Under the pieces are notes generated by a model, which was given only the letters and a program-made list of their open reading frames with translations, had not been told where the DNA came from and did not search any database. Shown piece by piece: positions 23,450 to 37,044 of a DNA stretch of 47,861 nt. Origin of the DNA: Candidatus Bathyarchaeota archaeon (GTDB lineage: Archaea; Thermoproteota; Bathyarchaeia; 40CM-2-53-6). Numbering within the stretch: position 1 is the first letter of the stretch; each line of letters starts with the position of its first letter. The stretch is from the NCBI GenBank assembly GCA_963833125.1, contig CAWHWX010000015.1, positions 1 through 47,861 on the forward strand, given 5' to 3'. The translations under genes and the position numbers were made by a program.

Positions 23450-24337
23450 ATGCATAGAAAAACGCCTGCAACGATTTTCGTACTCGGAACCAGCGGCTCC
23501 GGCAAGACAACTACGATCGAGTACCTAACCGCGCACCTTACCAAGCTAGGCATTCATGTCGGAGTTATCAAACACATTCACGAGGGCGGTCTAAGCTTAG
23601 ACACTAAAGGAAAGGACACATGGCGGCACGCAAGAGCAGGAGCAGAAATTGTTGTCGCTGTAGCACCCAAGGAAGTCATGGCGTTCAAGAAGACAGCAGC
23701 TGAAAATAGGCTTGCTGGGGTAATCAAGAGTTTGCGTGCGGAGCCCATCGATGTCCTCTTCTTGGAAGGCTTCTCAGGAGAATCAACAAAACATTCCTAC
23801 AAGATCGTTACAGCACGCGATGCTGCCGACCTTAGGTACACGCTACGCAAGATCACGCCTCCGATCCTCGCCGTCACTGGGCCCGTGGCTCGAAATTCAA
23901 GCGGGAGGCTGAAAGCAGTTGAACTTCCATCTCAAGGAGCTACGCTGACATCCATTGTCCGGCGATTGATCCGGCCTTCTGAATTGCATCGATTTTTGGT
24001 AGGAGCATCGAAAGACCACGGTGGTAAATGCGTCGGACTGGCAGTGGGGATGCGGGCCAGCTATCTGGCGTCAAACCTTCTCGGAGATCTATCTTCAAGT
24101 GAGGCTACTTTCGGAACTAAACGCTGTATCATTGAGGCGTTTAGATACATGTATCCGAAACTGCGAGTTAAAGTGCAAAACAGAAGGAATGATCTGATCA
24201 CAATTCGGAAGGAAGGTGTGAAGTTGTTGATTCAGCTGGCTCCCAAAAAGGAATACAGCAGACCTGAAGAGGTGTTGAATGTTCCGGATGACGAGCTATT
24301 TGAATCGGTGAAAACGCTTCAATTTCTCACGGGGTAA
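23450..24337 (+). CDS. mobB: MobB (molybdopterin-guanine dinucleotide biosynthesis protein B) fused to an FmdE-like domain
   Basis: GTSGSGKTT, GVIKH.H, D..GKDTWRH..AGA, D.LFLEGF. C-terminal HGGKCVGLAVGMRAS resembles the FmdE HG..C.G...G.R motif. Confidence 0.8.
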   Translation: MHRKTPATIFVLGTSGSGKTTTIEYLTAHLTKLGIHVGVIKHIHEGGLSLDTKGKDTWRHARAGAEIVVAVAPKEVMAFKKTAAENRLAGVIKSLRAEPIDVLFLEGFSGESTKHSYKIVTARDAADLRYTLRKITPPILAVTGPVARNSSGRLKAVELPSQGATLTSIVRRLIRPSELHRFLVGASKDHGGKCVGLAVGMRASYLASNLLGDLSSSEATFGTKRCIIEAFRYMYPKLRVKVQNRRNDLITIRKEGVKLLIQLAPKKEYSRPEEVLNVPDDELFESVKTLQFLTG

Positions 24338-25748
24338 CCTTCGTGGTTGATTGGGTGTTGAAGATCTTCTCATAAATTTCAGCCTGCCTGCACTTCGGAC
24401 AGAGCCTGATCACGCTTTCGTTGCCTTGAATCATGCCTGAAACTTTCTTGAACATTTTCACTGAGATGAATGGAGTCTTACATCTCGTACACTGTAACAT
24501 CTCGTCTTTGTAGACAGTTCTCGTCGATACCATGATTGGCCCGTTCATCTGGGATAGCGTTATCGATCGTTCTGGGCAGATTTTTGCGCAAAGCCCACAA
24601 CCAGTGCATTCTTCGGGAGTGAAATCGAGTTTATCCAGTTGAATTGCGAGGGCATCGTGAGGACAGGAGTCTACGCATGCATAGCAGAGTGTGCATGAGT
24701 CGGCTACGTCCATCGTCGTTAGATTGAGTCCGGCTGCCAGCGCCTGTTGGCTTGATATCGATTTGAGAGATTTCACATAATCCTTCCACGCACTTCCCGT
24801 TTGACTAATTGGCTTGTTACGCATTCGAGCGGAGCTGTGAATCTCTTTCATCTTCGCAGCGTCCAGTTTTCCCTCGACGTAAGCAACGACGGGTCCGTTT
24901 TCATCCATTAATGATGCGATCAGGTTCGCTGCACGTTTTGCATTTTCTTTGGCAGCACACAATCCATCTGCGCAATGAACGAGGACTGTATCGATAGAAG
25001 AATCCGCCGCCAAGGCGAGTTGTCTGACTCCCATGATCCCAATTCCAGGTACCTCTTCTACAACGAGCCATGGTTGCGGTGTGACACTCCGTTCGTTACA
25101 GGTTATTACGAGCGTTTTCGTGGGGGCTAAGGATGATTGTATAGCAGCAAGTAAGCCATGGTAGGCGTCTTCGGAGAATTGCGGGATCTGGATAGCTGCC
25201 ACCGGGCAGACGCCTGCGCATAGTCCACACCTTATGCAGGCCTCGCTCGAAACAGCTACCGAATCGGTTTCAATTTTCAGTGCACCTGGCGCTGGGCATG
25301 CATCAACGCATTTGGAGCATCCGAACTTAGCCTCACACGAATCGTCCAACACGATTGGTGTGTCGTTGGAGCTGATGGAGTTGCGCCGTAATGGTAGTAA
25401 GAGAAGTTCCCGCCTGGAGAAAACTTGCTTGCGCGGGACGTCTTTTCTTGCGTGGAGCATGTCTGACTTCGTGAGTCTGCCAAGTTTTGCATCTACTAAG
25501 AAGAGAGCCTCATCTACCGTAGCCGTCCTCTGTACGACAATTGTTTCCTTTAGCTGCGCTCCTATCTCCGTTGCCGGGAAGTCATCGCTCCTTATCAGAA
25601 GCACGGCTTGTGAGTCAACGTTTGAGGAGAGATTGATGTTGTTGGTTTCGTCGTAGACTACCGTTTCGCTCCAGTGGGAACGAATGTGCGCTGCAATGTT
25701 CTCTCTGAGTACCGGTTCCAAATCAGAACAGTAAACGACCGTCCTCAT
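24327..25748 (-). CDS. Polyferredoxin / multi-4Fe-4S protein
   Basis: C....GCSKCVDACP, CIRCGLCAGVCP, CTLCYACVDSCP, CTGCGLCAKICP, plus C-terminal CTRC...CPKC. Confidence 0.85.
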   Translation of the reverse strand: MRTVVYCSDLEPVLRENIAAHIRSHWSETVVYDETNNINLSSNVDSQAVLLIRSDDFPATEIGAQLKETIVVQRTATVDEALFLVDAKLGRLTKSDMLHARKDVPRKQVFSRRELLLLPLRRNSISSNDTPIVLDDSCEAKFGCSKCVDACPAPGALKIETDSVAVSSEACIRCGLCAGVCPVAAIQIPQFSEDAYHGLLAAIQSSLAPTKTLVITCNERSVTPQPWLVVEEVPGIGIMGVRQLALAADSSIDTVLVHCADGLCAAKENAKRAANLIASLMDENGPVVAYVEGKLDAAKMKEIHSSARMRNKPISQTGSAWKDYVKSLKSISSQQALAAGLNLTTMDVADSCTLCYACVDSCPHDALAIQLDKLDFTPEECTGCGLCAKICPERSITLSQMNGPIMVSTRTVYKDEMLQCTRCKTPFISVKMFKKVSGMIQGNESVIRLCPKCRQAEIYEKIFNTQSTTKVTP

Positions 25749-26398
25749 TCGGAGCTACTTCCTATGAGGTACTCAGATTCATTCTTGACAAACGCTTTCA
25801 ATAATTCTGCTGCCGATCTATAGAAGGATGAGTTTGTCGACTTAAGAACGCAATCTGCAAACCTTTCAACCCATGGTTCAAGGTGTTCCTTAAGAAATTC
25901 TTGTTCCATCTTCTTTCTTCTAGTCGATTCTTCTGAATTGCCTTGCCCAATGTCTTTGAGTTCTTCAGCGCAGAGAAAATGCATGAATTCCATCTCGACG
26001 GCTATGTGGTCTGGCAGGTCAGTAAAATTCTTGGGCATCACTAGGCCTGCTTCTGCGTACCTGTGTCGCACGTCTGCGGTCGATGGACCCATTACGAGTC
26101 CCTTCTCTAATATCGGTCTATCTTGGCGGTGAACGGATTCGTATGGAGGACAGGGAACACGGCCGGGACCAACAAATAATCTGAGATATTCTTTGCTTAA
26201 AGGCGCCACGGACAGGTCTTGGGTGCTATTCTCATTACCTATGGACCTGTCGTTTGCACCTAGTGACTGGTGTGCTTGTAAGATTGCTTCGTATAGTTTT
26301 CCGGATTCCTTTTTTGGTGGAGAGAAGGCGAGGGCGAGGATACCGTATACGTTAGCTCTGAACTCATATTCCTCAGTTACTTTAGAACTCGTCGTCAC
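25745..26398 (-). CDS. TorD/DmsD family redox enzyme maturation chaperone
   Basis: EY.RLFVGP, PPYES, PDHIAVEMEFM, FL.EHL..W. Confidence 0.92.
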   Translation of the reverse strand: MTTSSKVTEEYEFRANVYGILALAFSPPKKESGKLYEAILQAHQSLGANDRSIGNENSTQDLSVAPLSKEYLRLFVGPGRVPCPPYESVHRQDRPILEKGLVMGPSTADVRHRYAEAGLVMPKNFTDLPDHIAVEMEFMHFLCAEELKDIGQGNSEESTRRKKMEQEFLKEHLEPWVERFADCVLKSTNSSFYRSAAELLKAFVKNESEYLIGSSSE

Positions 26399-26435
26399 TC
26401 TTCCCTCCTCTTTCCACGGTGATGTGACCCGTGGG

Positions 26436-26732
26436 TTATGCCAGTATAAGTGAGCCTATGGCAGTTATCACTACGAATACTGCAAGGTAGCCGATTATGA
26501 GCAACGCTAACCATACTATGTAGTTCTTCAGTGACAACGTGTTTGCTAGAGCTGCAGAAAGTAGGATAATTATTCCCAACAACCAGAGAAGTGGGGCCCA
26601 AAGCACGCCTGTGCTTGCGAGTGGAATTGACACCACAAGATCAGTTGAGTCTCCTGTCACCCAAAGTGCAACACCCACAACTACCAAGATTAAACCTACA
26701 AGGCCGACAGCGATAGCTACAATTCTTGCCAT
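26436..26732 (-). CDS. Small integral membrane protein (3 TM) in the Mo-enzyme operon
   Basis: Almost entirely hydrophobic 98-aa ORF that starts 3 nt after the nrfD-like stop. Confidence 0.6.
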   Translation of the reverse strand: MARIVAIAVGLVGLILVVVGVALWVTGDSTDLVVSIPLASTGVLWAPLLWLLGIIILLSAALANTLSLKNYIVWLALLIIGYLAVFVVITAIGSLILA

Positions 26733-26735
26733 TTC

Positions 26736-28055
26736 TTATTCCCTCACAACATCCAATTCGATTATTGGAAACATTTTGATGAACAACAGGTATAGTAGAG
26801 CTGCCATCCAGAATGTACCCAGTATGATGGATGCTTCGGTTACCGTTGGAATGTAGATGCCGGTCTGATACAATGGTGGATTGAGTAGAGAAGGCACCAC
26901 TATTGTGAATCGCTTGATCCAGAAAGCTATGTTCAGAATTATTGATGCGATGAATATCAGCGTAGGGTTGAACATCCGTTTCGAGAAGACCGGCATGAGC
27001 AGAATTAGTGTAGGTATACCGAATCCGATAATTACTAATGGCCAGAAGATCAGTGCGAAGGGGCCACTCCATAAGAAGTCGGAGACCCTCAGTTGGGCCG
27101 ATGGGCCCATGTAGTTTGTGGTGAGTTCTTCCGCAATCCAGAGGTATAGGTATATGATTAGCACATTTCTGAGAGCCCATGAGATTCCTTTGAGGACTTC
27201 ATCGGTGATCAGTGATTGCCATTTGTAGCGCCATCTGAATATCCATGCCAGTGAGTAGACGGCTGCGACGCCGCTGACGATTGCGCCGACTACGAAGTAG
27301 ATTGCGAAGATTGTGGAGTACCACTCGGCTCTAGCTACCATTAGACCGAAGACGAAAGAGACGACGCTGTGTACGGTGACCATTATTGGGATGATGGCTA
27401 TTGCGAGCCACCATAGTGTCTGCGTGTGTCTCGCCTTCTCGGTTTCAGTTCCTTCGTAGTTCATGGCCAGGCGTTTGTAGAACTTTTCCCGTCTTGGTAG
27501 CTTGCGTACTAACTCGTCGATGTCGCCTCGTAAGCTGAGGTAGAGGTAGATGATGGTTGCCATGAAATAGGTTGTAATCGCTGAGAGATCCCATAGCAAA
27601 GGAGCCTGGAATCTACCGAACTGGAGCAGGTTGAACAGTCTATCTGGGCGTCCTACGTCAAACACGATTGACATCGCCGCCATCGGCAACGCCACCAAAG
27701 TTAGAACTTCAGCCATTCGCGCGACGACTTTGTATTTGTAAAGATTCATGAGCCTCACCGAGGCTGAAATCGCAATTCCAGCGTGGCTTATGCCAATCCA
27801 GAAGATGAAAGTGGTAACGTAGATACCCCAAGGAGAACCACCAGCAACTCCATATGCCATGTAGTTGGGTGCGTTGTACACGCTACGCATCCCAGTTACT
27901 ATGAGCCCTTGGCTTAGCTGTGTGTACCAGCAGTACAGGAACCATCCTGTCAAAACCAACAGGGCACCAACGATGACGTAAAATACCGTTCCAGTCTCGA
28001 GAAGCGGCTGTAGAAGCGCGCCTTCATCAACCTTCACGGTAGAGTCCTTCTTCAA
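26736..28055 (-). CDS. NrfD/PsrC family membrane anchor (about 10 TM, DsrP/ActC-like length)
   Basis: PWGIY...F.FWIGI.HAG, D.GRP.R, SP/APL.WD...I..Y, HSVVS..F, KRF.IVVP.L. Confidence 0.9.
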   Translation of the reverse strand: MKKDSTVKVDEGALLQPLLETGTVFYVIVGALLVLTGWFLYCWYTQLSQGLIVTGMRSVYNAPNYMAYGVAGGSPWGIYVTTFIFWIGISHAGIAISASVRLMNLYKYKVVARMAEVLTLVALPMAAMSIVFDVGRPDRLFNLLQFGRFQAPLLWDLSAITTYFMATIIYLYLSLRGDIDELVRKLPRREKFYKRLAMNYEGTETEKARHTQTLWWLAIAIIPIMVTVHSVVSFVFGLMVARAEWYSTIFAIYFVVGAIVSGVAAVYSLAWIFRWRYKWQSLITDEVLKGISWALRNVLIIYLYLWIAEELTTNYMGPSAQLRVSDFLWSGPFALIFWPLVIIGFGIPTLILLMPVFSKRMFNPTLIFIASIILNIAFWIKRFTIVVPSLLNPPLYQTGIYIPTVTEASIILGTFWMAALLYLLFIKMFPIIELDVVRE

Positions 28056-28720
28056 GTCGCGCTCACCTCCTGAGGCCTCGTAGGATTACGAGGTGGCACG
28101 TAATACACTGAAGGTTCTGTTCCTAACTCTTCGCGAAGCCTAACCGTAGGTTTCGTCTCGATTATTTGTGAAACCTGGCTGTTCGGGTCGTCAAGGTCGC
28201 CGAAGAACCGTGCGCCTGCGGGACAAACTTCTATGCATGCGGGCGTGAAGTTCCCCACATCGACTCTGTGGAAGCAGAACGTGCACTTTTCCGCAACACC
28301 AACCGGCCTCACAGGGACCGCCGGTGCTCCTAGCTTGAATTGAGAGCTGTCGGGGACCTGCACAGGCGCACTCCAGTTGAACGCCGGTATACCGTATGGG
28401 CACGCAACTAGGCAATAACGGCAACCGATGCATCTGTCCCAGTCAAGGAAGACGATCCCGTCATCCCGTTTTCGAAGCGCGCCTACCGGGGATACCTTAA
28501 CGCAAGGCGCGTTGTCGCAGTGTTGACAATTAATAGGCATGTAAGTCATTCTTACATCCGGATAAGTGCCCGAAGGCGTGTCCATCTCCTTACCTCCAGT
28601 TGTTAGGATACGGTTCCACCATATTCCGAGGGGCTCGTTGTTCTCTGCTTTACAGCCAAGGGCGCATGTCCAGCAACCTAAACATCTGCTCAGATCAATT
28701 ATCATGGTTAATTTTGTCAA
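28052..28720 (-). CDS. Four-cluster Fe-S electron-transfer subunit (DmsB/NrfC/PsrB family)
   Basis: CLGCWTCALGC, CQHCDNAPCVKV(S)P, CIGCRYCLVACP, KCTFC.HR...PAC...CP, FGDL.DP.S. Confidence 0.92.
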   Translation of the reverse strand: MTKLTMIIDLSRCLGCWTCALGCKAENNEPLGIWWNRILTTGGKEMDTPSGTYPDVRMTYMPINCQHCDNAPCVKVSPVGALRKRDDGIVFLDWDRCIGCRYCLVACPYGIPAFNWSAPVQVPDSSQFKLGAPAVPVRPVGVAEKCTFCFHRVDVGNFTPACIEVCPAGARFFGDLDDPNSQVSQIIETKPTVRLREELGTEPSVYYVPPRNPTRPQEVSAT

Positions 28721-28731
28721 CTCATTTCACC

Positions 28732-31228
28732 CTATGATTTCTTCACTTCAACCAGAGTATCGTAATACGTGGTGTTAGACTGGAACAGGAAGACGACGGA
28801 CTGTGCCGGGTTAATTTTCTGATGCGTGAGCATGTTTACTGTAGCCGTAGGGAATTCCTGCCAATCACCTTGGTATGCGTTGACAACGCCGGGCCGAATG
28901 CCTTCAGTTATCCTGGTCAGAAGTTGAATTGAACCACGATCGTTGAAAACTGTCACCGTATCGCCGTCATTGATCCCTCTAGCTTGAGCGTCGATCGAAT
29001 TTATTTCGAGAAACGATTTGGGAATAATTTCTCGAAGCCATGGCAAGTTGTCCCATTGAGTGTGAGTTCTGAACTTTGTGTGAGATGTGAGGAAGACGAG
29101 TGGATATTTCTGGTACAGTGGATTAGTCGGCGAAGCCTCAATCGGTTCATTGTAGATGGGGAGAGGCATTGAGTAAGGGACAAGGGATTCTGTGTAGAAT
29201 TCTATTCTTCCTGACGGTGTAGGGAAGTGTTGTTGGTAGTATGGGACATAGGGATGTGTGATAGGTTGGAATGCAGCAGTTCCATAATCTTTGTCTGCCA
29301 ATGCGACGACACCCTTCGCTCTTCAGCGTATCCAACGTTAACCCGGATGGTAGACCGCTTAGCAGTAGGCTAAGGTAGTCGTCGGGAGTCTTGTCGAAGT
29401 AGTTTCCCTGCCCCATCTTCTGAGCGACTTCGGCGAACATGTCAAGATCGGACTTGCACTCCCAGAGTGGATCAATTATTTTCGGCATGTACTGGAAGTA
29501 GTAGTTGCCCCCTGGGAGCATGTCCTCTCGCTCGTATTGCGTGGCGCATGGTAGAACTATGTCGGCGTATTGAGCCGTCGGCGACAGAAACATATCTGAG
29601 ACTACAACGAAATCGAGCGCCTTGAGCGCCGCGATTGTGCGGTTCGTATCACCCTGTTGGTTAACGAAATTGTCTACTGGGAACCAAGCGGCCTTCACCG
29701 GGAATGGTTTACCCGTTTCCACGGTGGCGCAGAATGAGAGTGGAGGAAGGTAAGTGTACGCCTTCTTGTCGGGGTTCAACCAGTCGGGAAGATCGAGCGC
29801 GGCGTCCAGCAAAGCGCCGTTGTAAGTTGTGACGCCGCCGCCGTGTACTCCTATGTAGCCGCATATGGCGGAGAGCGTTATCATTGCCCTGTAGGTTAAG
29901 TCGCCGTAGAACCAATGTGAAATTCCACCGAAACCAGCTTTGATCGCCGCGGGGGATCTGAGTGGCGAATTCCTTCGCGAGATTCTCTATAATCGAAGCA
30001 GGAATTCCCGTTATCTTCTCCGCTTCAGAAGTAGGATACTGACTCACCAGATCAACGAGCAATTGAAAGGCGGGTTTACACGTAGTTTTGGCAGCGCTGT
30101 ATGAACCGGTGAGAGAAGGTGCTATGCCGCTTTGATCGTAGGGAACAATTGATTTGCTATTAGAGTCATATACCATGTACTTGGTCGAGGTCCCAGTTGT
30201 TACGTCCTTTTCCCTGAGAAAGAGCTGTGTGTCTTGTCGGACCAAGAAGGGCCCAACGGTGTAGTTTGTTATATAATCTGAATTGTGGAGCTGCTCGTTT
30301 ATGATCACATTGATCATGCTGAGGGCCAGCGCTCCATCGGTTCCGGGGCGAATGGAAATCCACTGGTCGGAGAGAGTTGCGGTAGATGTGTATCTTGGGT
30401 CGATGTTCACTACTTTCGCCGTAGTGCCGTTCGGGTTCAGCTGGGTTACCCCTTCAGAGGTAATGGTGCCTTCTCGTGCGTCGAGCACGAATCGCATGTC
30501 TGGCACGTCAGTTTCAGCCAGGTTGTTGCCCCAAAGGATGATCATACGTGAGTTTCGTAAGTCTGAGAGATCATGACCGTCGAACGATCCAAGGATCTCA
30601 TTTGCGCCACAGGGACTTGCCGAGTCGCCTTCATTATCTCCTTCAAAGTCACCGGCGCTCGCTCCAATTACGCTCGCGAACCTGTATCCTGCGCCGATTA
30701 CCCCGTTTAACGCGGAAAGACTTCCCGTGTAAGGTGCGATGTATACGGCTGTAGGGTCCATACTTTTGGGCGATTTCTGTGAATTTGCTTGCGATGGTGG
30801 TTGTTGCTTCATCCCAGGATATCTGTTCCCATTGTCCACTCCCGCGGGGGCCAGTGCTTTTCATTGGATATTTCAGTCGGTCTGGGTGGTAGACGTATTG
30901 AATGTTAGAGATTCCACGCAAGCACACTCTCGGCGGAAAATTGGGATCGTTGAAGGTCGCGTTACTTATCCTCGTAATGTTACCGTCAATAACGGTAACA
31001 GATAGTCCACACGATCCGTCGCAATTGTTGCAGTGCGCAGTTCTGAATATTTGAGGCAGACTGCTCGCGCTTTGGAAGAGGAATCTTAGAGGATACGCGT
31101 TGTAAAGCGTTCAGGACGGTCCCGTCTGAAGAGACTGCGCCGTATGTAAAAAGCCCGCCCGTGATCGCGGATAATTTGAGAAAATCTCGACGGTCTAGTC
31201 TGACTCCTGTATTCCTAGTTTGAGCCAA
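28732..31228 (-). CDS. Tat-exported Mo/W-bis-PGD oxidoreductase catalytic subunit (DMSO reductase family; at least 4 indels)
   Basis: RRDFLK Tat motif, HCNNCDGSC...CLRG, DRLKYPM, ISWDEA, WGNN.AET, IDPR.T.TA, IRPGTDGAL, D.F...TA.YADIVLP, TPSGRIE, H...RTH, DA..RGI.DGD. Spread over five ORF fragments. Confidence 0.9.
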
Positions 31229-31291
31229 TGCGAATACCTAAACTGGACTCACGCGGAGAACACATTAAGAGGCCTCTGCACGCATTCTACA

Positions 31292-31306
31292 TAGAACTAT
31301 GTTCTA
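31292..31306. promoter_or_regulatory. Palindrome TAGAAC-TAT-GTTCTA upstream of the Mo-enzyme operon
   Basis: Perfect 6-bp inverted repeat about 65-80 nt before the start codon, just beyond a TATA-like TTAATG on the minus strand. Confidence 0.35.
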
Positions 31307-31489
31307 GTATCGATAGTAGCACAACTGTTCGCATTTGGAAATGCGATTTGAGCACTGGGCTCGGGGTACGGTAAGACGATCGCAGCCGAACCTACAACCA
31401 AATCCCTCAAAAGAAACAGAAGAAAAGTTGCGGGCATCTTAAGAATGAACTCTGTGAAATCAAGGTGAGAACACGTTGGAGGCACCGAT

Positions 31490-32089
31490 ATGAGTTCATA
31501 CCAGGAACCGGACGATCAGACTGGGGCAGTAATTCTCGCGGGCGGTAAAGCAACACGACTCCCCGACAAATGTTTCAGAGTATTCGATCGAAAGGAACTT
31601 GTCCTCCACGTTTACGAAAGAGTTTCAATGGCAGTTCCGGAAATTGTGGTAGTCGGAAAAACCGTGCAGGACGTTGGCCGGCTTCAACAAATCCTCCCAA
31701 AAGCTCGCATCGTTCACGAAGGAGTCGCTGACGCAGAGCCCTTTGGTGGGCCTACTCTGTGGACTGAACGCGCTTGAGAACGAGTATGTGTTCGCAGCTG
31801 CGTGCGACATGCCATTCCTAGAACCCAAATCATTTCGCTCGCTTCACGCCCAAGCCACGGGACGAGAGGCTGCTATCCCTTACTCGGACGGTAAACTCGA
31901 ACCACCTATGCGCGGTCTACAAACGAACCAGCGCTGTGAAGGCCGCCTCAAACTGTCTCAAAGTGAAACCGTACAAGCATCCTTGAGATGATTAGAGAGC
32001 TGAAGGAGGTCACACGAGTCAACAAGGAGGAACTTCGAAAAGATGACCCCCTCCTTCTGTCATTCGTCAACGTAAACACAGAACAATGA
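31490..32089 (+). CDS. mobA: Molybdenum cofactor guanylyltransferase (several indels; end approximate)
   Basis: AVILAGG...R..DK, then PL.GL..GL, ACDMPF, EP, and SF.NVNT in successive frames. Confidence 0.85.
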
Positions 32090-32191
32090 GCTAAAGAAGG
32101 CAGAAGAAGCCCATGAGACCTTGATCGAGCTTTGGGCAACGACCAAGAAATCCTATACGTTCCTGATGCGGTTCTGTGGGTTGAAGCTGTA

Positions 32192-32880
32192 ATGTTAGAA
32201 GCAGTTGTCAGCATCACTCCCCCGCATAGTTGGATCAAACGGCTGACTAGTGAATTTCCTGCCGTCATACGCGTATTGGACTGCCGGACCCTTCCCAGGC
32301 GGAAAGGGAGTGCAGGAGCTCTTCGAGTTAACGAGCGCTCTGGAACTTTCGGCGAAGATCGTGGGATCACTTCGAAAAGACAGTTACGTGTATGACGTAG
32401 ATATCGTGAAAGGTGAACGTGGAAGAGTCGTTGGATCTCTCAAGACCCATAAGTGTACGGCGTGTCGAACTTTCGCGGGCGCAAACTGTTTTCTGATCTC
32501 TGCCGCAAGTAAACCCGATGGACAACTCGAGTGGACGGTGCTAGGCAACGATACAGTAGTCAAGTCGCTAATGCATGAACTGGAGAAAGAAAACGTGATT
32601 GGCAAGGTGGTCAAAATTTCGAAGTTGGAAGACGAGAAGGAATTAACGACGAGACAGGAGAATATTTTACAGATTGGACTCGAGAAGGGTTACTTTGAAT
32701 TCCCAAAGAAAATAACACTTCGCCAATTAGCTAAAACTCTTGACATTGCTCCCGCAGACATTAACCGAAATACTCAGGCGAGGACAGAAGCGAGTGTTGC
32801 AGGAACACTTCAAAGGTCGCCCTTCCGTACTGGGGAAGAGAGCCTCTTCGCATCTGCCTGGTTATCAAGGTAGGAAATGA
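32192..32880 (+). CDS. HTH-10 (Bat/DmsR-like) transcriptional activator (indels)
   Basis: C-terminal LT.RQ..IL...LE.GYFE.PK...L..LA..L.I, continuing LTEILRRGQKRVL in another frame. N-terminal sensor region has a KCTAC motif. Confidence 0.85.
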
Positions 32881-33005
32881 CCTAACAGGTTAGGGTACAT
32901 CGCTATTCGAAACCTTTGGCTGCATCCATTCCATGTGAGAAGGATGCGGGCGTGTAGGGTTAGAAAATCGAAGGGGTAACCATACGAAGTTTTCCTAGAG
33001 TCAGC

Positions 33006-34559
33006 TTGATGCTGCTACTCATTACAGCTTCTCTTCTTCTAATCCCATTTTTTACACCCAATGCTTCCGGTGACGCAAAGCGCGCCGGCATATGCACCGA
33101 ACCGCAGCAAGTCACCCACCGATATACCATCGACCCCTTCACCCTCCGACAGAGTTGTGGTAACGCTTGTCACTGAGGAGAAACTAGGGCAACTGGCGAA
33201 TGGTGTCACGTACGATTTCTGGACATTCAACGGCACGGTTCCTGGCCCTCTCATCAGGCTGTGTGTTAGGGCAGATCGTTGAGATGCACCTTATCAACCC
33301 GCTAAACAGCACCATGATGCATTCAATTGACTCTCATGGAATTCTCGGACAAGGAGGAGGCGGCGCTTATTCACAGACTGCACCTGGCAACGAATCCATC
33401 TTCCAATTCACAGCAATGAATCCTGGTCTATTTTTGTACCATTGCGCCACGCCGGACATACCGACCCACATCGCCAACGGAATGTACGGCTTGATGCTCG
33501 TTGAACCCCAAGGAGGGCTTCCGAAGGTCGATGATGAGTTCTACCTAGTGCAAGGCGAGTTCTACACCATGGACCGATACGGACAGCAGGGCTACCAAGC
33601 CTTCAGCTATCAGAAAGCCCAGGCCGAAACCCCAGACTATGTTGTCTTCAATGGCAGAGTCGGCGCTTTGACAGGAAACGGAACTATGAGGGTGAAAGTC
33701 GGCGACAGCGTTCGAGTCTTCTTCGGAAACGCCGGACCGAACCTTGACTCGTCCCTTCACATAATAGGTGGCATAATGGATCGGGTGTACGAAGACGGAT
33801 CCCTAGACTCTCCTCCCCTCTTGGAGGTTCAGACCGTATTGGTTCCTGCGGGTTCAGCAGCCATGGTGGAATTCACGGCGCAAACTCCCGGCATACTTAC
33901 TTTACTTGACCATTCAATATTCAGACTGCATCAAGGCGCAGTGGCAACCTTCACGGTAACAGGCCCAAGCAACCCTGCAATCATCACCTCAATCAAGAAC
34001 GGTACTCGCCCAGCGCCTATCGTCCAGACTGGGAATACGACCGTGCCCACAACGGAGGAAATATCCAACAACACCTCAAGCGCGGGTGCCTCAAATTATA
34101 CCGTATTGATCGTGAACTATGCGTACGCTCCGGCGGACCTAACAGTATCTGTGGGAACGACTGTAACATGGGTGAACCAGGATTCGGTGGGGCATACGGT
34201 TACGAGAGGGCGATCCGAATTCACCCAAGCAAGCGTCTCTTCGTGCCTTTGATTCTTCAGGCGGAAGCTCTAACTGGGAAAGTGGTGTTGATCGGAGCTG
34301 GCGCGAGTTGGAGTTACACATTCACAACTCCAGGCACATACGAATATTACTGCATCGTTCACCCATACATGATAGGACACATTACCGTAAGCCCAGCTTC
34401 CGGGTCGAATAGCTCGCAGAGTCGGGTTACGGTGACTAAACCAACTTCACGATAACATTCACCGGCAGGGACCTCGTAGGCCTAAGCGCAGTAGGAATAG
34501 TTGTGCTTGTGGCCATAATGCTCATCTTCACACGATCAGGCAGGAAGAGGGTATATTGA
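33006..34559 (+). CDS. nirK: Copper-containing nitrite reductase with signal peptide, extra C-terminal cupredoxin domain and TM anchor (several indels; start approximate)
   Basis: WTFNGTVPGP.IR, HSIDSH, YHCATP...HIANGMYG, YLVQGEFY, VVFNG, SLHIIG, DHSIFR. Then V.VGTTVTW.N.D...HTVT ... F..PG.Y.YYCIVHPYM.G. Tail GRDLVGLSAVGIVVLVAIMLIFTRSGRKRVY*. Confidence 0.85.
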
Positions 34560-34627
34560 CATGGCCTTAGTTGCAACCTAGACAAAGCAACGGCTTGCAG
34601 CATCAAAACTCTGACTGCGCAGGTTCT

Positions 34628-35039
34628 ATGAGATCAAGACGCACCTTCCTTCGACGAGCAGCTTGCATCGCAATAGGGGCAAGCATTCTCCTCGTTGGCA
34701 GAGATTTAACCGAAGTTCTTTCTGTTCCCCACAGTGGTCATAATCTATGGATCCTCCTTACCAACCAACGACCAGACGAACACCAGAGCCCGACTTATCA
34801 CGGTAAAAGTCTACTACTCCATGATGGCTCAGTACACCGACTTAACCGAGGAACTCTTCGTCCTTCAGACGCCCGCTGTGCTTCGTGATCTCACGAACAC
34901 TGTCTTGGTTTAGCATCCTTCCATGACTCAAATGATGGGGATGATGTTAACCCTCCTCAACGGAACCCCAGCGAAACCTAACGCCCCATTGAAGGACGAG
35001 GACGTAATTCAATTCATACCGTTATCCGCCGGCGGTTAG
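34628..35039 (+). CDS. Twin-arginine-signal, Met-rich ubiquitin-like (MoaD/ThiS/SAMP beta-grasp) protein ending in GG (one indel and one in-frame TAG)
   Basis: MRSRRTFLRRAACIAIGASILLVG. After a frame change, plausibly at CCCC 34727-34730: ...LITVKVYYSMMAQYTDLTEELFVLQTPAVLRDLTNTVLV*HPSMTQMMGMMLTLLNGTPAKPNAPLKDEDVIQFIPLSAGG*. Confidence 0.7.
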
Positions 35040-35452: not shown

Positions 35453-35704
35453 ATGAGCAAAAGCGAGATGACGATGTTGATACCGAGTTTTACTGAGACG
35501 TTCAACACAGGGATTCTACTTCAACTGGCAAGTACGCGACATACTGACGAATGCTCTAACTGTAGAGTTTTCTTAACTAACAGTTGCCAACGATGTTCTC
35601 GATGCGGATCACCCAAGAACTCGCCGTGTCTACACTGTGATTTCGATCTTGGACGCTCGGACGATACTGCGATGCATAAAGTAGTCTCAATGAAAGGCCA
35701 CTAA
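35453..35704 (+). CDS. Small Cys-rich putative zinc-ribbon protein
   Basis: CSNC, CQRCSRC and CLHC motifs. Purine-rich GGAGG upstream. Confidence 0.35.
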   Translation: MSKSEMTMLIPSFTETFNTGILLQLASTRHTDECSNCRVFLTNSCQRCSRCGSPKNSPCLHCDFDLGRSDDTAMHKVVSMKGH

Positions 35705-35844: not shown

Positions 35845-37044
35845 ATGCCGTTGGATTTTACGTTTACAGATGAGCAGAATCTTTTCCGAAAGGCTGTTCG
35901 CGATTTCATGGCGAGAAATGTTGCTCCGAAGTCGAAGGAGTTGCTTAAGGCGAGGCTCGTTACGCCTGAGATCCATAAAGGATTCACAGATCTCGGCATT
36001 TTCGGATTATTAGTGCCTCAAGAATATGGTGGTTCCGCCGCAGATTTTGTGACATTTCTCATAGCGGTGGAGGAAATGACGAAGGGTGACCCTACCGGTT
36101 TCGCGGGTCTTCCAATCTGGTACGGAGCTTCATGCGCACGCATCGTCGCAGTGTACGGGAATCAAGCGTTGAAGGAGGAGATCCTGCCTAAAGTCACGAA
36201 GGAAGGCTGGATGACACCACTACACTCAACCGAACCTACGTGCGGAACGGATTTCACGTCAATAACCTCGACCGCCAAGAAGATTGGTGACGAGTTTGTG
36301 GTGAACGGGGAGAAGATGTGCCTTAGTTGCGTTCCGGAGGTCATGAAGTATGGAGGAGGATTCGTCACATCAGTGAAAACGAAACCTGAGTTAGGCAGCA
36401 AAGGAATGAGCCTCCTCTACATTCCATCAGACTCTAAGGGCATGAATACTTCAAACTACACTGGGATGGGGATCGATATCGGTGGTGTTCGATACGAGAA
36501 CACGCATGTTCCCGAACGTTATCTAATCGGATCCGAGGGAACTGGATATCAGATGACCTACGAATCTTTCGTTCACGCACGCGTCCCAACGACAATGAGC
36601 ATCGTCGCCGCCGCAGAGGCCGCAATCGAAAGAGGCATCGAATATCTGAAGCAGAGAAGAACATTCGGACGACCCATCGGCGCACACGAAGGCATCCAAT
36701 TTGAACTAGCTGAAAACTACGCGAACGTTCAAGCATCGAAACTGCTCTGCTACCGCGCCGCATGGCTCGTGGACCAATACCACAAAGGGAAAGCCTCATT
36801 CCAAGAAACAATGACCGCTGCCTCCACAGCCAAGCTCGTCGCTTCAGAACTCTGCGTGAAAGCTCTCAGTGACGTTCTAGAATGGTATGGAGGACTTGGA
36901 ACCACGACGGAATACGATATTCAGCAAGTATACAGAACTGTAAGGCAGGCCGTGATAGCTGAAGGAACAAAGAACGCACAGAAGATAGTGATAGCAATGC
37001 AGCTACTAGGCAGAGACTTCGCTTCCTGGAAAGCAAATGAATAA
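35845..37044 (+). CDS. Acyl-CoA dehydrogenase family protein
   Basis: P.EYGG, TEP..G.D, NGEK, QR..FGRPI...GIQF.LA, AK..ASE, GG.G, IAEGT (catalytic Glu position). Confidence 0.92.
   Translation: MPLDFTFTDEQNLFRKAVRDFMARNVAPKSKELLKARLVTPEIHKGFTDLGIFGLLVPQEYGGSAADFVTFLIAVEEMTKGDPTGFAGLPIWYGASCARIVAVYGNQALKEEILPKVTKEGWMTPLHSTEPTCGTDFTSITSTAKKIGDEFVVNGEKMCLSCVPEVMKYGGGFVTSVKTKPELGSKGMSLLYIPSDSKGMNTSNYTGMGIDIGGVRYENTHVPERYLIGSEGTGYQMTYESFVHARVPTTMSIVAAAEAAIERGIEYLKQRRTFGRPIGAHEGIQFELAENYANVQASKLLCYRAAWLVDQYHKGKASFQETMTAASTAKLVASELCVKALSDVLEWYGGLGTTTEYDIQQVYRTVRQAVIAEGTKNAQKIVIAMQLLGRDFASWKANE

Follow-up and report, generated by a model that had tools for sequence, protein, structure and literature searches.

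The window analysed here is the 47,861-nucleotide (nt) stretch formed by positions 1-47,861 of contig CAWHWX010000015.1 from the assembly GCA_963833125.1 of a Candidatus Bathyarchaeota archaeon. The gene of interest, at 34628-35039 on the plus strand, encodes a small ubiquitin-like (Ubl) protein in which a twin-arginine N-terminus precedes a MoaD/SAMP-type beta-grasp domain with a free C-terminal diglycine (GG). As an earlier interpretation made from the letters only (the sequence-only reading) had stated, the gene follows nirK directly, starting 68 nt after a nirK-type gene whose TGA stop codon lies at 34557-34559. Two overlapping frames, one base apart, were found in this interval on the plus strand. 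The first began at the ATG at 34628 and read MRSRRTFLRRAACIAIGASILLVGRDLTEVLSVPHSGHNL, thereafter unrelated sequence; the second read ...GSSLPTNDQTNTRARLITVKVYYSMMAQYTDLTEELFVLQTPAVLRDLTNTVLV, a stop codon, HPSMTQMMGMMLTLLNGTPAKPNAPLKDEDVIQFIPLSAGG and a final stop codon. The 5' part of the gene (34628-34746, +) contained the ATG, the N-terminus M-R-S-R-R-T-F-L-R-R, the hydrophobic region (h-region) AACIAIGASILLVG and the linker start ...VLSVPHSGHNL. The 3' part (34749-35039, +) contained the linker GSSLPTNDQTNTRA and the MoaD-fold domain, which ended in ...IPLSAGG and the stop codon TAG at 35037-35039. The seven Met and one His that had been noticed in the domain, within SMMAQ and HPSMTQMMGMML, were confirmed.

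The window gene was compared by tblastn with P0028, an intact 136-amino-acid (aa) protein of a protein collection encoded on a 968-nt contig, which may come from the same sample and is perhaps not independent. The window frames were identical to P0028 at 39 of 40 positions over residues 1-40 and at 95 of 96 thereafter (134/136 overall). P0028 differed from the window at three places only, namely E2 (Arg in the window), the frame switch between L40 and G41, and R94, where the window has a TAG. This alignment placed an extra base, giving a +1 frame break, at 34747 or 34748 on the plus strand, between ...SGHNL and GSSLPTND.... The earlier proposal of one open reading frame (ORF) disrupted by a single base was therefore right about the frames and wrong about the site, which had been placed near the CCCC run at 34727-34730. 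The domain had also been taken as complete, and an in-frame TAG at 34911-34913 (+; VLV-stop-HPSM) had been overlooked. Arg occupies this site in P0028, and the relatives that bear the RHP motif have Arg in all but one case (Glu). A metagenome contig of a relative about 90% identical (run X2) continued in frame without the base after 34746. Compared with the window, the metagenome contigs of relatives showed one-base indels at 33077, 34204, 34263/4 and 34421 besides the base missing after 34746; these contigs belonged to other strains, mostly at <95% identity, and the best run held 0.18 of the sampled words. The gene is real, and the window copy is broken by one extra base plus one in-frame TAG, damage that is most likely an assembly error. 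Recoding of TAG, including pyrrolysine, was rejected, since TAG ends 447 of the 1545 ORFs of at least 250 aa in the genome of the window (G000) and the orthologues have Arg at the site. A programmed frameshift was also rejected, as it was absent from every orthologue.

Intact homologues were found in related genomes (designated by G-numbers, with L-numbers for loci of relatives). A domain search of the whole genomes of 41 relatives gave matches in 13, every one from the same genus. Single-ORF orthologues of 136-155 aa with SRRxFLR at the start and GG at the end were present in G013 (136 aa, MKSRRTFLRS...PLSAGG), G016, G019 and G022 (137 aa), with more distant ones in G010 and G005. These proteins confirmed that a twin-arginine translocation (Tat) signal, a MoaD/SAMP domain and a free GG are joined in a single ORF; the signal and the domain were not split into separate ORFs, and the homologues retained both the twin-arginine motif (RR) and the Met cluster. 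From the N-terminus, the architecture comprised SRRxFLR, a moderately hydrophobic segment, a variable linker, the MoaD/SAMP-fold domain and GG at the exact C-terminus. A word-indexed search yielded 82 homologues of 74-238 aa. GG stood at the exact end in 80 of them, the remaining 2 being cut short, and [ST]RRxFL lay within the first 60 residues in 67, the other 15 being N-terminally shorter. Where names were given, they read "MoaD/ThiS family protein" or "molybdopterin converting factor small subunit", from Candidatus Bathyarchaeia. In an alignment of 38 sequences (A2), which included paralogues at 39-43% identity, R4, R5, L8, L22, Y63, E75, F77, L88, M102, L121, D125, P131, G135 and G136 were invariant. 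Conservation of at least 90% was found, among others, at S3, F7, M66, Q68, Y69, Q80, P82, A83, R95, H96, P97, M106, L109, G112 and F129.

The extent of the family was evaluated by a profile search of 1.84 billion representatives, which gave 361 matches at E<=0.001 and, at the stricter limit of E<=1e-10, 101 clusters. Full-length sequences were frequent among the 50%-identity clusters, combining the RR motif and a run of 13-35 uncharged residues with the GG end, and canonical MoaDs (80-90 aa, ending in PPVxGG, without the extension) emerged only from about E 1e-10 downward. In a class sample of 301 genomes and a phylum sample of 401 genomes, full-length matches were confined to the genus of the window. 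Ten cluster look-ups returned three names only: Nitrososphaerota/Thaumarchaeota, "Terriglobales bacterium" and one JGI function name. A protein-atlas cluster held 71 members, assigned to Archaea, with ThiS in 93%. A peptide-pattern scan of genome contigs with narrow patterns gave only 8 loci, and a search of longer proteins, which is weak evidence, found no fused forms. One subfamily is shorter (117 aa), its domain being only about 4 residues away from the hydrophobic segment, and is called short-linker below, the others being long-linker. Taken together, this is a sizeable and so far generically annotated family of MoaD-fold proteins, predicted to be exported or membrane-tethered. As to public labels, L030 and L031, which carry the archaeal nirK-Ubl locus, are named 'Candidatus Acidiferrales bacterium' and 'Candidatus Acidoferrum sp.', and the protein P0086 'Terriglobales bacterium'; the bacterial labels on L030 and L031 look like mis-assigned bins, both loci matching G022 and G010 of the genus of the window. 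A 72-aa family copy beginning MAQYV... without a signal was observed at L008 1498-1716(-) (G011:C1), where its neighbours are an FmdE-like gene and an NRAMP-like transporter; this copy is perhaps truncated or frame-broken.

The fold was examined by profile and structure comparison. With the TAG read as X, the window domain matched Pfam ThiS (PF02597) at 23.9 bits against a cut-off of 22.5, and orthologues and paralogues scored 28.4, 35.2 and 31.9 bits. In an AlphaFold2 model built on A2, the domain block 55-131 reached a predicted local distance difference test score of 83-94, with the N-terminus and linker at low confidence. The MoaD/SAMP beta-grasp fold that had been proposed held up in Foldseek: the best PDB match was mycobacterial MoaD (6jbz_B; TM 0.87, root-mean-square deviation 1.7 A over 84 columns), followed by Haloferax SAMP1 (3po0) and Pyrococcus MoaD (1vjk), and 16 PDB chains, headed by MoaD, SAMP1 and Urm1, were found at E<=0.001. 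A profile-to-PDB sequence search concurred, with 1vjk at 34.4 bits. Every NCBIfam MoaD/ThiS cut-off was missed by the members tested: four members scored 21.4-31.3 bits on TIGR01687 (moaD_arch) against 49.5, and scores on TIGR01682 and NF008347 were 16.9 against 66.15 and 17.2 against 94. The Pfam and NCBIfam copies searched held no dedicated model for the family. Compared to MoaD, ThiS and SAMP, the family shares the beta-grasp fold, the motifs RHPxL and L-x-DGD-x-V-x-F/L-x-P and the exact C-terminal GG, to which it adds the N-terminal twin-arginine signal, the hydrophobic segment and the linker. Differently from canonical MoaD/ThiS, it has three near-invariant Met at positions where those proteins are polar or Leu/Ile, and its tail reads P-L/A-x-A-GG, that of canonical MoaD being PPVxGG.

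The near-consensus twin-arginine motif described in the sequence-only reading was supported, as R4, R5 and L8 were invariant and S3 and F7 conserved in at least 90% of the 38 sequences. Comparable motifs occur on obvious Tat substrates of these genomes, such as LDRRDFLK on the molybdenum (Mo) enzyme and SRRKFL/SRRQFL on iron-sulfur (Fe-S) subunits. The hydropathy of the best 15-residue h-region was 1.85-2.0, compared with 1.15-1.75 for local Tat signals and 2.65-3.11 for the two NirK membrane helices. TatC was found in G000 at 143.6 bits. Positive charges stand ahead of the hydrophobic segment, an arrangement that predicts an outward-facing domain.

The neighbouring gene was then characterized. 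The nirK-type copper nitrite reductase gene (32935-34559, +; Pfam Cu-oxidase and Copper-bind) encodes a C-terminal plastocyanin-like domain and a membrane helix. On TIGR02376, NirK of seven genus genomes scored 310-325 bits (the intact G016 orthologue 325) against a cut-off of 296.3, which identified it as a true copper nitrite reductase by sequence. The NirK N-terminus is hydrophobic without an RR motif, and the enzyme would therefore be metallated outside the cell. An HTH_10 (Bat-like) transcription regulator gene (32192-32856, +; Pfam HTH_10, with 2 frame changes) lies upstream, as in 5 loci. The gene order in the window and G016 was a Mo-enzyme cluster (catalytic subunit, Fe-S, NrfD, NarJ-like and MobB), a MobA-like gene, hemerythrin (missing in the window), the HTH_10 regulator, nirK, the Ubl gene and a Cys-rich ORF; across loci the recurrent core was hemerythrin, regulator, NirK and Ubl. 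A NirK gene stood directly upstream of the Ubl gene in 8 of the 11 long-linker loci, i.e. the window, G013, G016, G019 (across a contig end), G022, G010, L032 and L034. Among the others, the locus at G005:C2 had a divergent NirK gene 1.5 kb off and that at G005:C106 ran off its contig. No E1, JAMM, rhodanese or MoaE gene occurred in the conserved neighbourhoods, so that the family, unlike MoaD, adjoins cupredoxin enzymes and has no MoaE or E1 neighbour.

The short-linker subfamily stood at the end of a cupredoxin/Fe-S/NrfD operon in 4/4 loci. This operon encodes a cupredoxin-like protein, a Tat-signal Fe-S protein, a 645-aa NrfD, an immunoglobulin-like protein and one more protein. The gene of the cupredoxin-like protein was located at L026 7223-7908(-), L040 2052-2729(+), L038 2412-3050(+) and L039 20-532(+). 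Its product ends ...YAYVCTTPCGPGMGLAGYM..., with Cys-x3-Cys-x3-Met where a type-1 site has Cys-x-His-x-Met, scores only 19.5 bits on Cupredoxin_1, and may have an unusual copper site.

The Mo-enzyme genes raise the question of whether the Ubl protein is an ordinary cytoplasmic MoaD of the neighbouring Mo-cofactor genes, its N-terminal extension being an artefact of ORF calling. MobB (23450-24337), the MobA-like gene and the NarJ-like gene are found within 11 kb, as is a DMSO-reductase-family enzyme, both in the window and in G016; MobB comes after the Ubl gene in G022, and the public annotation is molybdopterin converting factor small subunit. Against this stand the RR motif and h-region kept in the 38 aligned sequences and in dozens of 50%-identity clusters, and the scores far under the MoaD model cut-offs. 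Canonical ThiS/MoaD loci also exist elsewhere in G000, where nine further ThiS-family loci were found, none with the RR extension and one directly before an E1; the sole MoaE match was on another contig (C16:310669). The Ubl gene is not consistently linked to Mo-cofactor genes: a Mo-enzyme gene family could be detected neither at the G013 locus, over the 15 kb examined, nor at L032 and L034, among the listed ORFs up to about 3.5 kb away on either side. The family is not an ordinary or housekeeping MoaD, and this alternative, to which we assign a minimal probability, is close to refuted. As an observation on the cluster itself, 23450-31228 of the window held a complete-looking respiratory molybdoenzyme cluster, with a DMSO-reductase-family catalytic subunit bearing a Tat signal, Fe-S and NrfD subunits, a NarJ-like chaperone, a poly-ferredoxin and a MobB-FmdE fusion, and the MobA-like gene lay at 31490-32083. 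The best partial models for the enzyme were DmsA/YnfE and type II DMSO reductases.

The breaks were not limited to the Ubl gene. Compared with the intact G016 orthologues, at least 3 frame changes were counted in nirK (the G016 protein aligned by tblastn as 4 pieces in 3 frames) and 4 in the Mo-enzyme catalytic subunit, besides those in the regulator. No change was found in the Fe-S gene (28055-28720), NrfD (26739-28055) or acyl-CoA dehydrogenase (35845-37044). With the Ubl gene included, at least 11 frame changes or stops fell within 28735-35039. This distribution, together with the missing hemerythrin gene, would fit a recent decay of the nitrate/nitrite cluster, in which the Ubl gene, nirK, the regulator and the Mo-enzyme catalytic subunit are genuine pseudogenes and the locus does nothing in this organism. 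We consider that rather unlikely. The essential rpoB gene (Rpb2_6 domain) is likewise divided between two overlapping frames (e.g. G000:C14:90087-91201). Across nearly all 39 contigs of G000, consecutive ORFs on the same strand show long overlaps in different frames, at a density of 2.2 per 10 kb; in the loci of relatives, over 78 kb, the density was 0.64 per 10 kb. ARAGORN found only 7 transfer RNA genes in the 3.07 Mb of G000. Moreover, the broken pieces are 86-98% identical to G016, the same as their intact neighbours, and the intact and near-identical P0028 exists, though perhaps from the same sample. Assembly noise is the more probable source of the breaks.

To describe the Met pattern, 123 RR-bearing, GG-ending sequences were set against 28 canonical MoaDs that the same searches had produced; the set contains redundant rows, and group membership was decided by signal and ending. 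Met content was 6.8% in the RR family and 2.1% in the canonical MoaDs. At position 66, Met was found in 95% of the RR family and 11% of the canonical proteins, which mostly have Gln or Arg; the values were 98% and 32% at position 102, and 98% and 29% at position 106. Positions 65, 99 and 103 had Met in 44-50% of the RR family, compared with 0-7% of canonical MoaDs, where Ala/Gly, Leu and Arg/Lys occur respectively. His at position 96 was present in 94% and 86%. In the beta-grasp topology, strand 1 finishes (63-66), strand 3 begins (106) and the C-terminal tail leaves the domain at one common end of the sheet, so that the Met positions are predicted to ring the base of the GG tail.

Based on these results, we tentatively favour an explanation with somewhat less than an even chance of being right: the Ubl protein would face outward and act as an accessory to cupredoxin enzymes, most plausibly by handing over Cu(I) to NirK. 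In this mechanism the protein would fold in the cytoplasm and its invariant twin-arginine N-terminus would direct it, already folded, through the Tat translocon. It would arrive at the outer face of the cytoplasmic membrane, either tethered by an uncleaved, moderately hydrophobic signal or released, with the beta-grasp domain borne on a flexible Ser/Thr/Asn-rich linker. There it would serve the co-transcribed, membrane-anchored NirK-cupredoxin, and the short-linker subfamily would serve the cupredoxin/Fe-S/NrfD complex. Cu(I) would be captured and passed on by the Met cluster M66, M102 and M106, with the frequent extra Met at 65, 99 and 103. Copper binding and the NirK client are both putative, and the support is circumstantial: the family-specific Met positions, the synteny with cupredoxin enzymes, and the finding of PCuAC in 0/25 related genomes, five of them NirK-bearing. 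A complex prediction for the NirK ectodomain (48-500) and the Ubl domain (52-136) gave 0.00 and 0.00 against a mark of 0.32, and counts neither way.

Several observations weigh against Cu(I) hand-over by an exported Ubl protein. Export and outward topology are themselves predictions from sequence. On the Tat model TIGR01409, the G016 orthologue reached 16.6 against a cut-off of 16.7, the other three members gave no match at E<=0.01, and Pfam TAT_signal reported no match for the protein. As the sequence-only reading had remarked, no AxA cleavage site was clearly visible, so an uncleaved signal anchor is possible. His96, counted earlier as a copper ligand, is just as conserved in ordinary MoaDs and so does not set the family apart. 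Around 30% of canonical MoaDs likewise carry Met at 102 and 106, which may therefore be core residues. The clustering and exposure of the Met near the tail base are predicted from the fold topology. The long-linker locus L033 belongs to a genome without any NirK match, and in G012 and G017, two of the nine NirK-bearing genus genomes, no Ubl gene was found downstream of nirK or by the domain query. Finally, we know of no copper chaperone that requires an exact, invariant C-terminal GG. The invariant GG is the strongest fact left unexplained by the Cu(I) reading, and points to E1-type chemistry or tail insertion. It keeps two rivals alive, i.e. activation by a cytoplasmic E1 before Tat export, and a tail insertion like that of MoaD into MoaE.

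In the first rival, a shared cytoplasmic E1 (ThiF/UbaA-like) would adenylate the terminal Gly, and the thiocarboxylated or conjugated protein would be exported folded via Tat, delivering sulfur, a thiocarboxylate metal ligand or a covalent passenger outside the cell. The GG was exact in nearly all RR-bearing representatives as well as in the 80 homologues above, down to roughly 30-40% identity. Tat is the pathway taken by proteins whose folding or modification happens in the cytoplasm, and every genus genome contained 2-3 strong ThiF-type E1 genes. However, no dedicated E1 was apparent, and the E1 count does not track the family: G007 and G012 have three E1s without it, and G005, G016, G019 and G022 have two with it. 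The activating, processing and sulfur-transfer partners are missing from the conserved neighbourhoods as described, sulfide is not needed by NirK, and the stretch remodelled with Met follows strand 1 and corresponds to the E1-facing part of MoaD. We therefore regard an activated carrier as unlikely. A combination of it with Cu(I) hand-over was considered a longer shot still: the protein could be the first extracytoplasmic ubiquitin-like carrier, in which an E1-made terminal thiocarboxylate and the adjacent Met triad form, on the outer face of the membrane, a site that contains no Cys, can be recharged and passes Cu(I) (or sulfur) on to NirK and further cupredoxin enzymes. If true, ATP-dependent ubiquitin-type chemistry would be coupled to metallation outside the cell.

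The second rival involves no metal. The Ubl protein could be a structural or assembly subunit whose Met-rich hydrophobic surface binds NirK or the cupredoxin of the NrfD complex, with the GG tail inserted in a pocket, and it would tether, stabilise or regulate the enzyme without carrying copper. The synteny is identical to that adduced for Cu(I) hand-over. MoaD inserts its C-terminal tail into MoaE, MoaD-fold proteins characteristically act in this manner, and conserved Met patches are typical of adaptable protein-binding surfaces. The domain of the short-linker subfamily, so close to its membrane segment, would also suit a fixed subunit. On the other hand, binding to the enzyme has no direct support, the long variable linker of the NirK-linked subfamily better fits a mobile carrier, and no fused form was seen among longer proteins, which is a weak argument. 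This structural role was judged improbable, to the same degree as activation by an E1.

Returning to Cu(I) hand-over by an exported Ubl protein, the proposed factor was compared with known systems. SoxY of Sox thiosulfate oxidation is a twin-arginine-exported carrier with an immunoglobulin-like fold and a flexible, glycine-rich C-terminal arm that holds the substrate on the Cys of GGCGG. The Ubl family resembles it as a candidate carrier with a twin-arginine signal and predicted export, but Cys is scarce in it (26 in total among 123 domains) and its C-terminus is a plain GG. BfUbb of Bacteroides fragilis is a secreted, antibacterial ubiquitin homologue of eukaryote type, with no terminal GG and no link to copper enzymes. 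It gives a precedent for a prokaryotic ubiquitin-fold protein with an export signal, whereas the Ubl family is of MoaD type.

Two copper-supply systems were compared with regard to the role proposed. In the accessible text on Neisseria gonorrhoeae, the PCuAC-family periplasmic protein AccA metallates the NirK AniA through a His/Met site (PMC13006917). As described there, AccA is alike in being a small extracytoplasmic protein with a copper nitrite reductase as client and His/Met-type Cu(I) ligands, features that are predicted, proposed and candidate, respectively, in the Ubl family. The folds and families are unrelated, and the motif HXnMX21/22HXM is not present in the Ubl family. Pfam/NCBIfam scans of the protein found none of the known Cu(I) chaperone families (PCuAC, CusF and CopC types), in keeping with its MoaD-like fold. 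Given that PCuAC was found in none of the 25 genomes, the Ubl protein would be an analogue of AccA and not a homologue. CutF, the small product of cutFOG, is described in the accessible text as needed for the activity of the multicopper oxidase CutO in Rhodobacter capsulatus (PMC8456105). In that account the gene of this small protein adjoins that of a multicopper-oxidase-type enzyme, to which CutF is proposed to supply copper; CutF is bacterial and has no GG tail, and, compared by description only, kinship in sequence or fold is not expected.

The claim that no such system had been described was consistent with a full-text literature search on MoaD/ThiS, ubiquitin-like or beta-grasp proteins with a Tat signal, signal peptide or periplasmic copper, which found none. 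The fold and superfamily are known; the predicted compartment, the motif set and the genomic partnership are new. MoaD, ThiS, Urm1 and SAMP are cytoplasmic proteins since their GG terminus requires an ATP-using E1, and a large family that keeps the GG together with an invariant export signal breaks this expectation. It raises the question of what role a ubiquitin-type tail would have where there is no ATP. These results suggested an unrecognised helper of copper enzymes outside the archaeal membrane, a candidate answer to how archaeal NirK and other outward-facing cupredoxin enzymes obtain copper. Because peat and sediment Bathyarchaeia bear nirK, the factor may bear on nitrite and nitric oxide turnover in such soils; the literature found on Bathyarchaeia and nirK consisted of surveys, as far as their accessible text extends.

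Two further genes of the neighbourhoods were observed. A polytopic membrane protein of 160-230 aa (...FYFMQLYGFVAMMIFGLSYLFVPSF...) was encoded in three NirK/Ubl loci, at L024 3613-4308(+), L025 2723-3325(-) and L027 6243-6731(+); it had no Pfam family and matched nothing but a cbb3 oxidase subunit I/II model, faintly, at 16.3 bits. The small Cys-rich ORF of 83 aa lies at 35453-35704 (+) in the window (...CSNCRVFLTNSCQRCSRCGSPKNSPCLHC...), and the same ORF (fam18) also follows the Ubl gene in G016 and G019. The window copy shares 57% identity with that of G016, matches DUF2284 weakly (17.1 against a cut-off of 25), and may encode a putative metal- or Fe-S cluster-binding protein.

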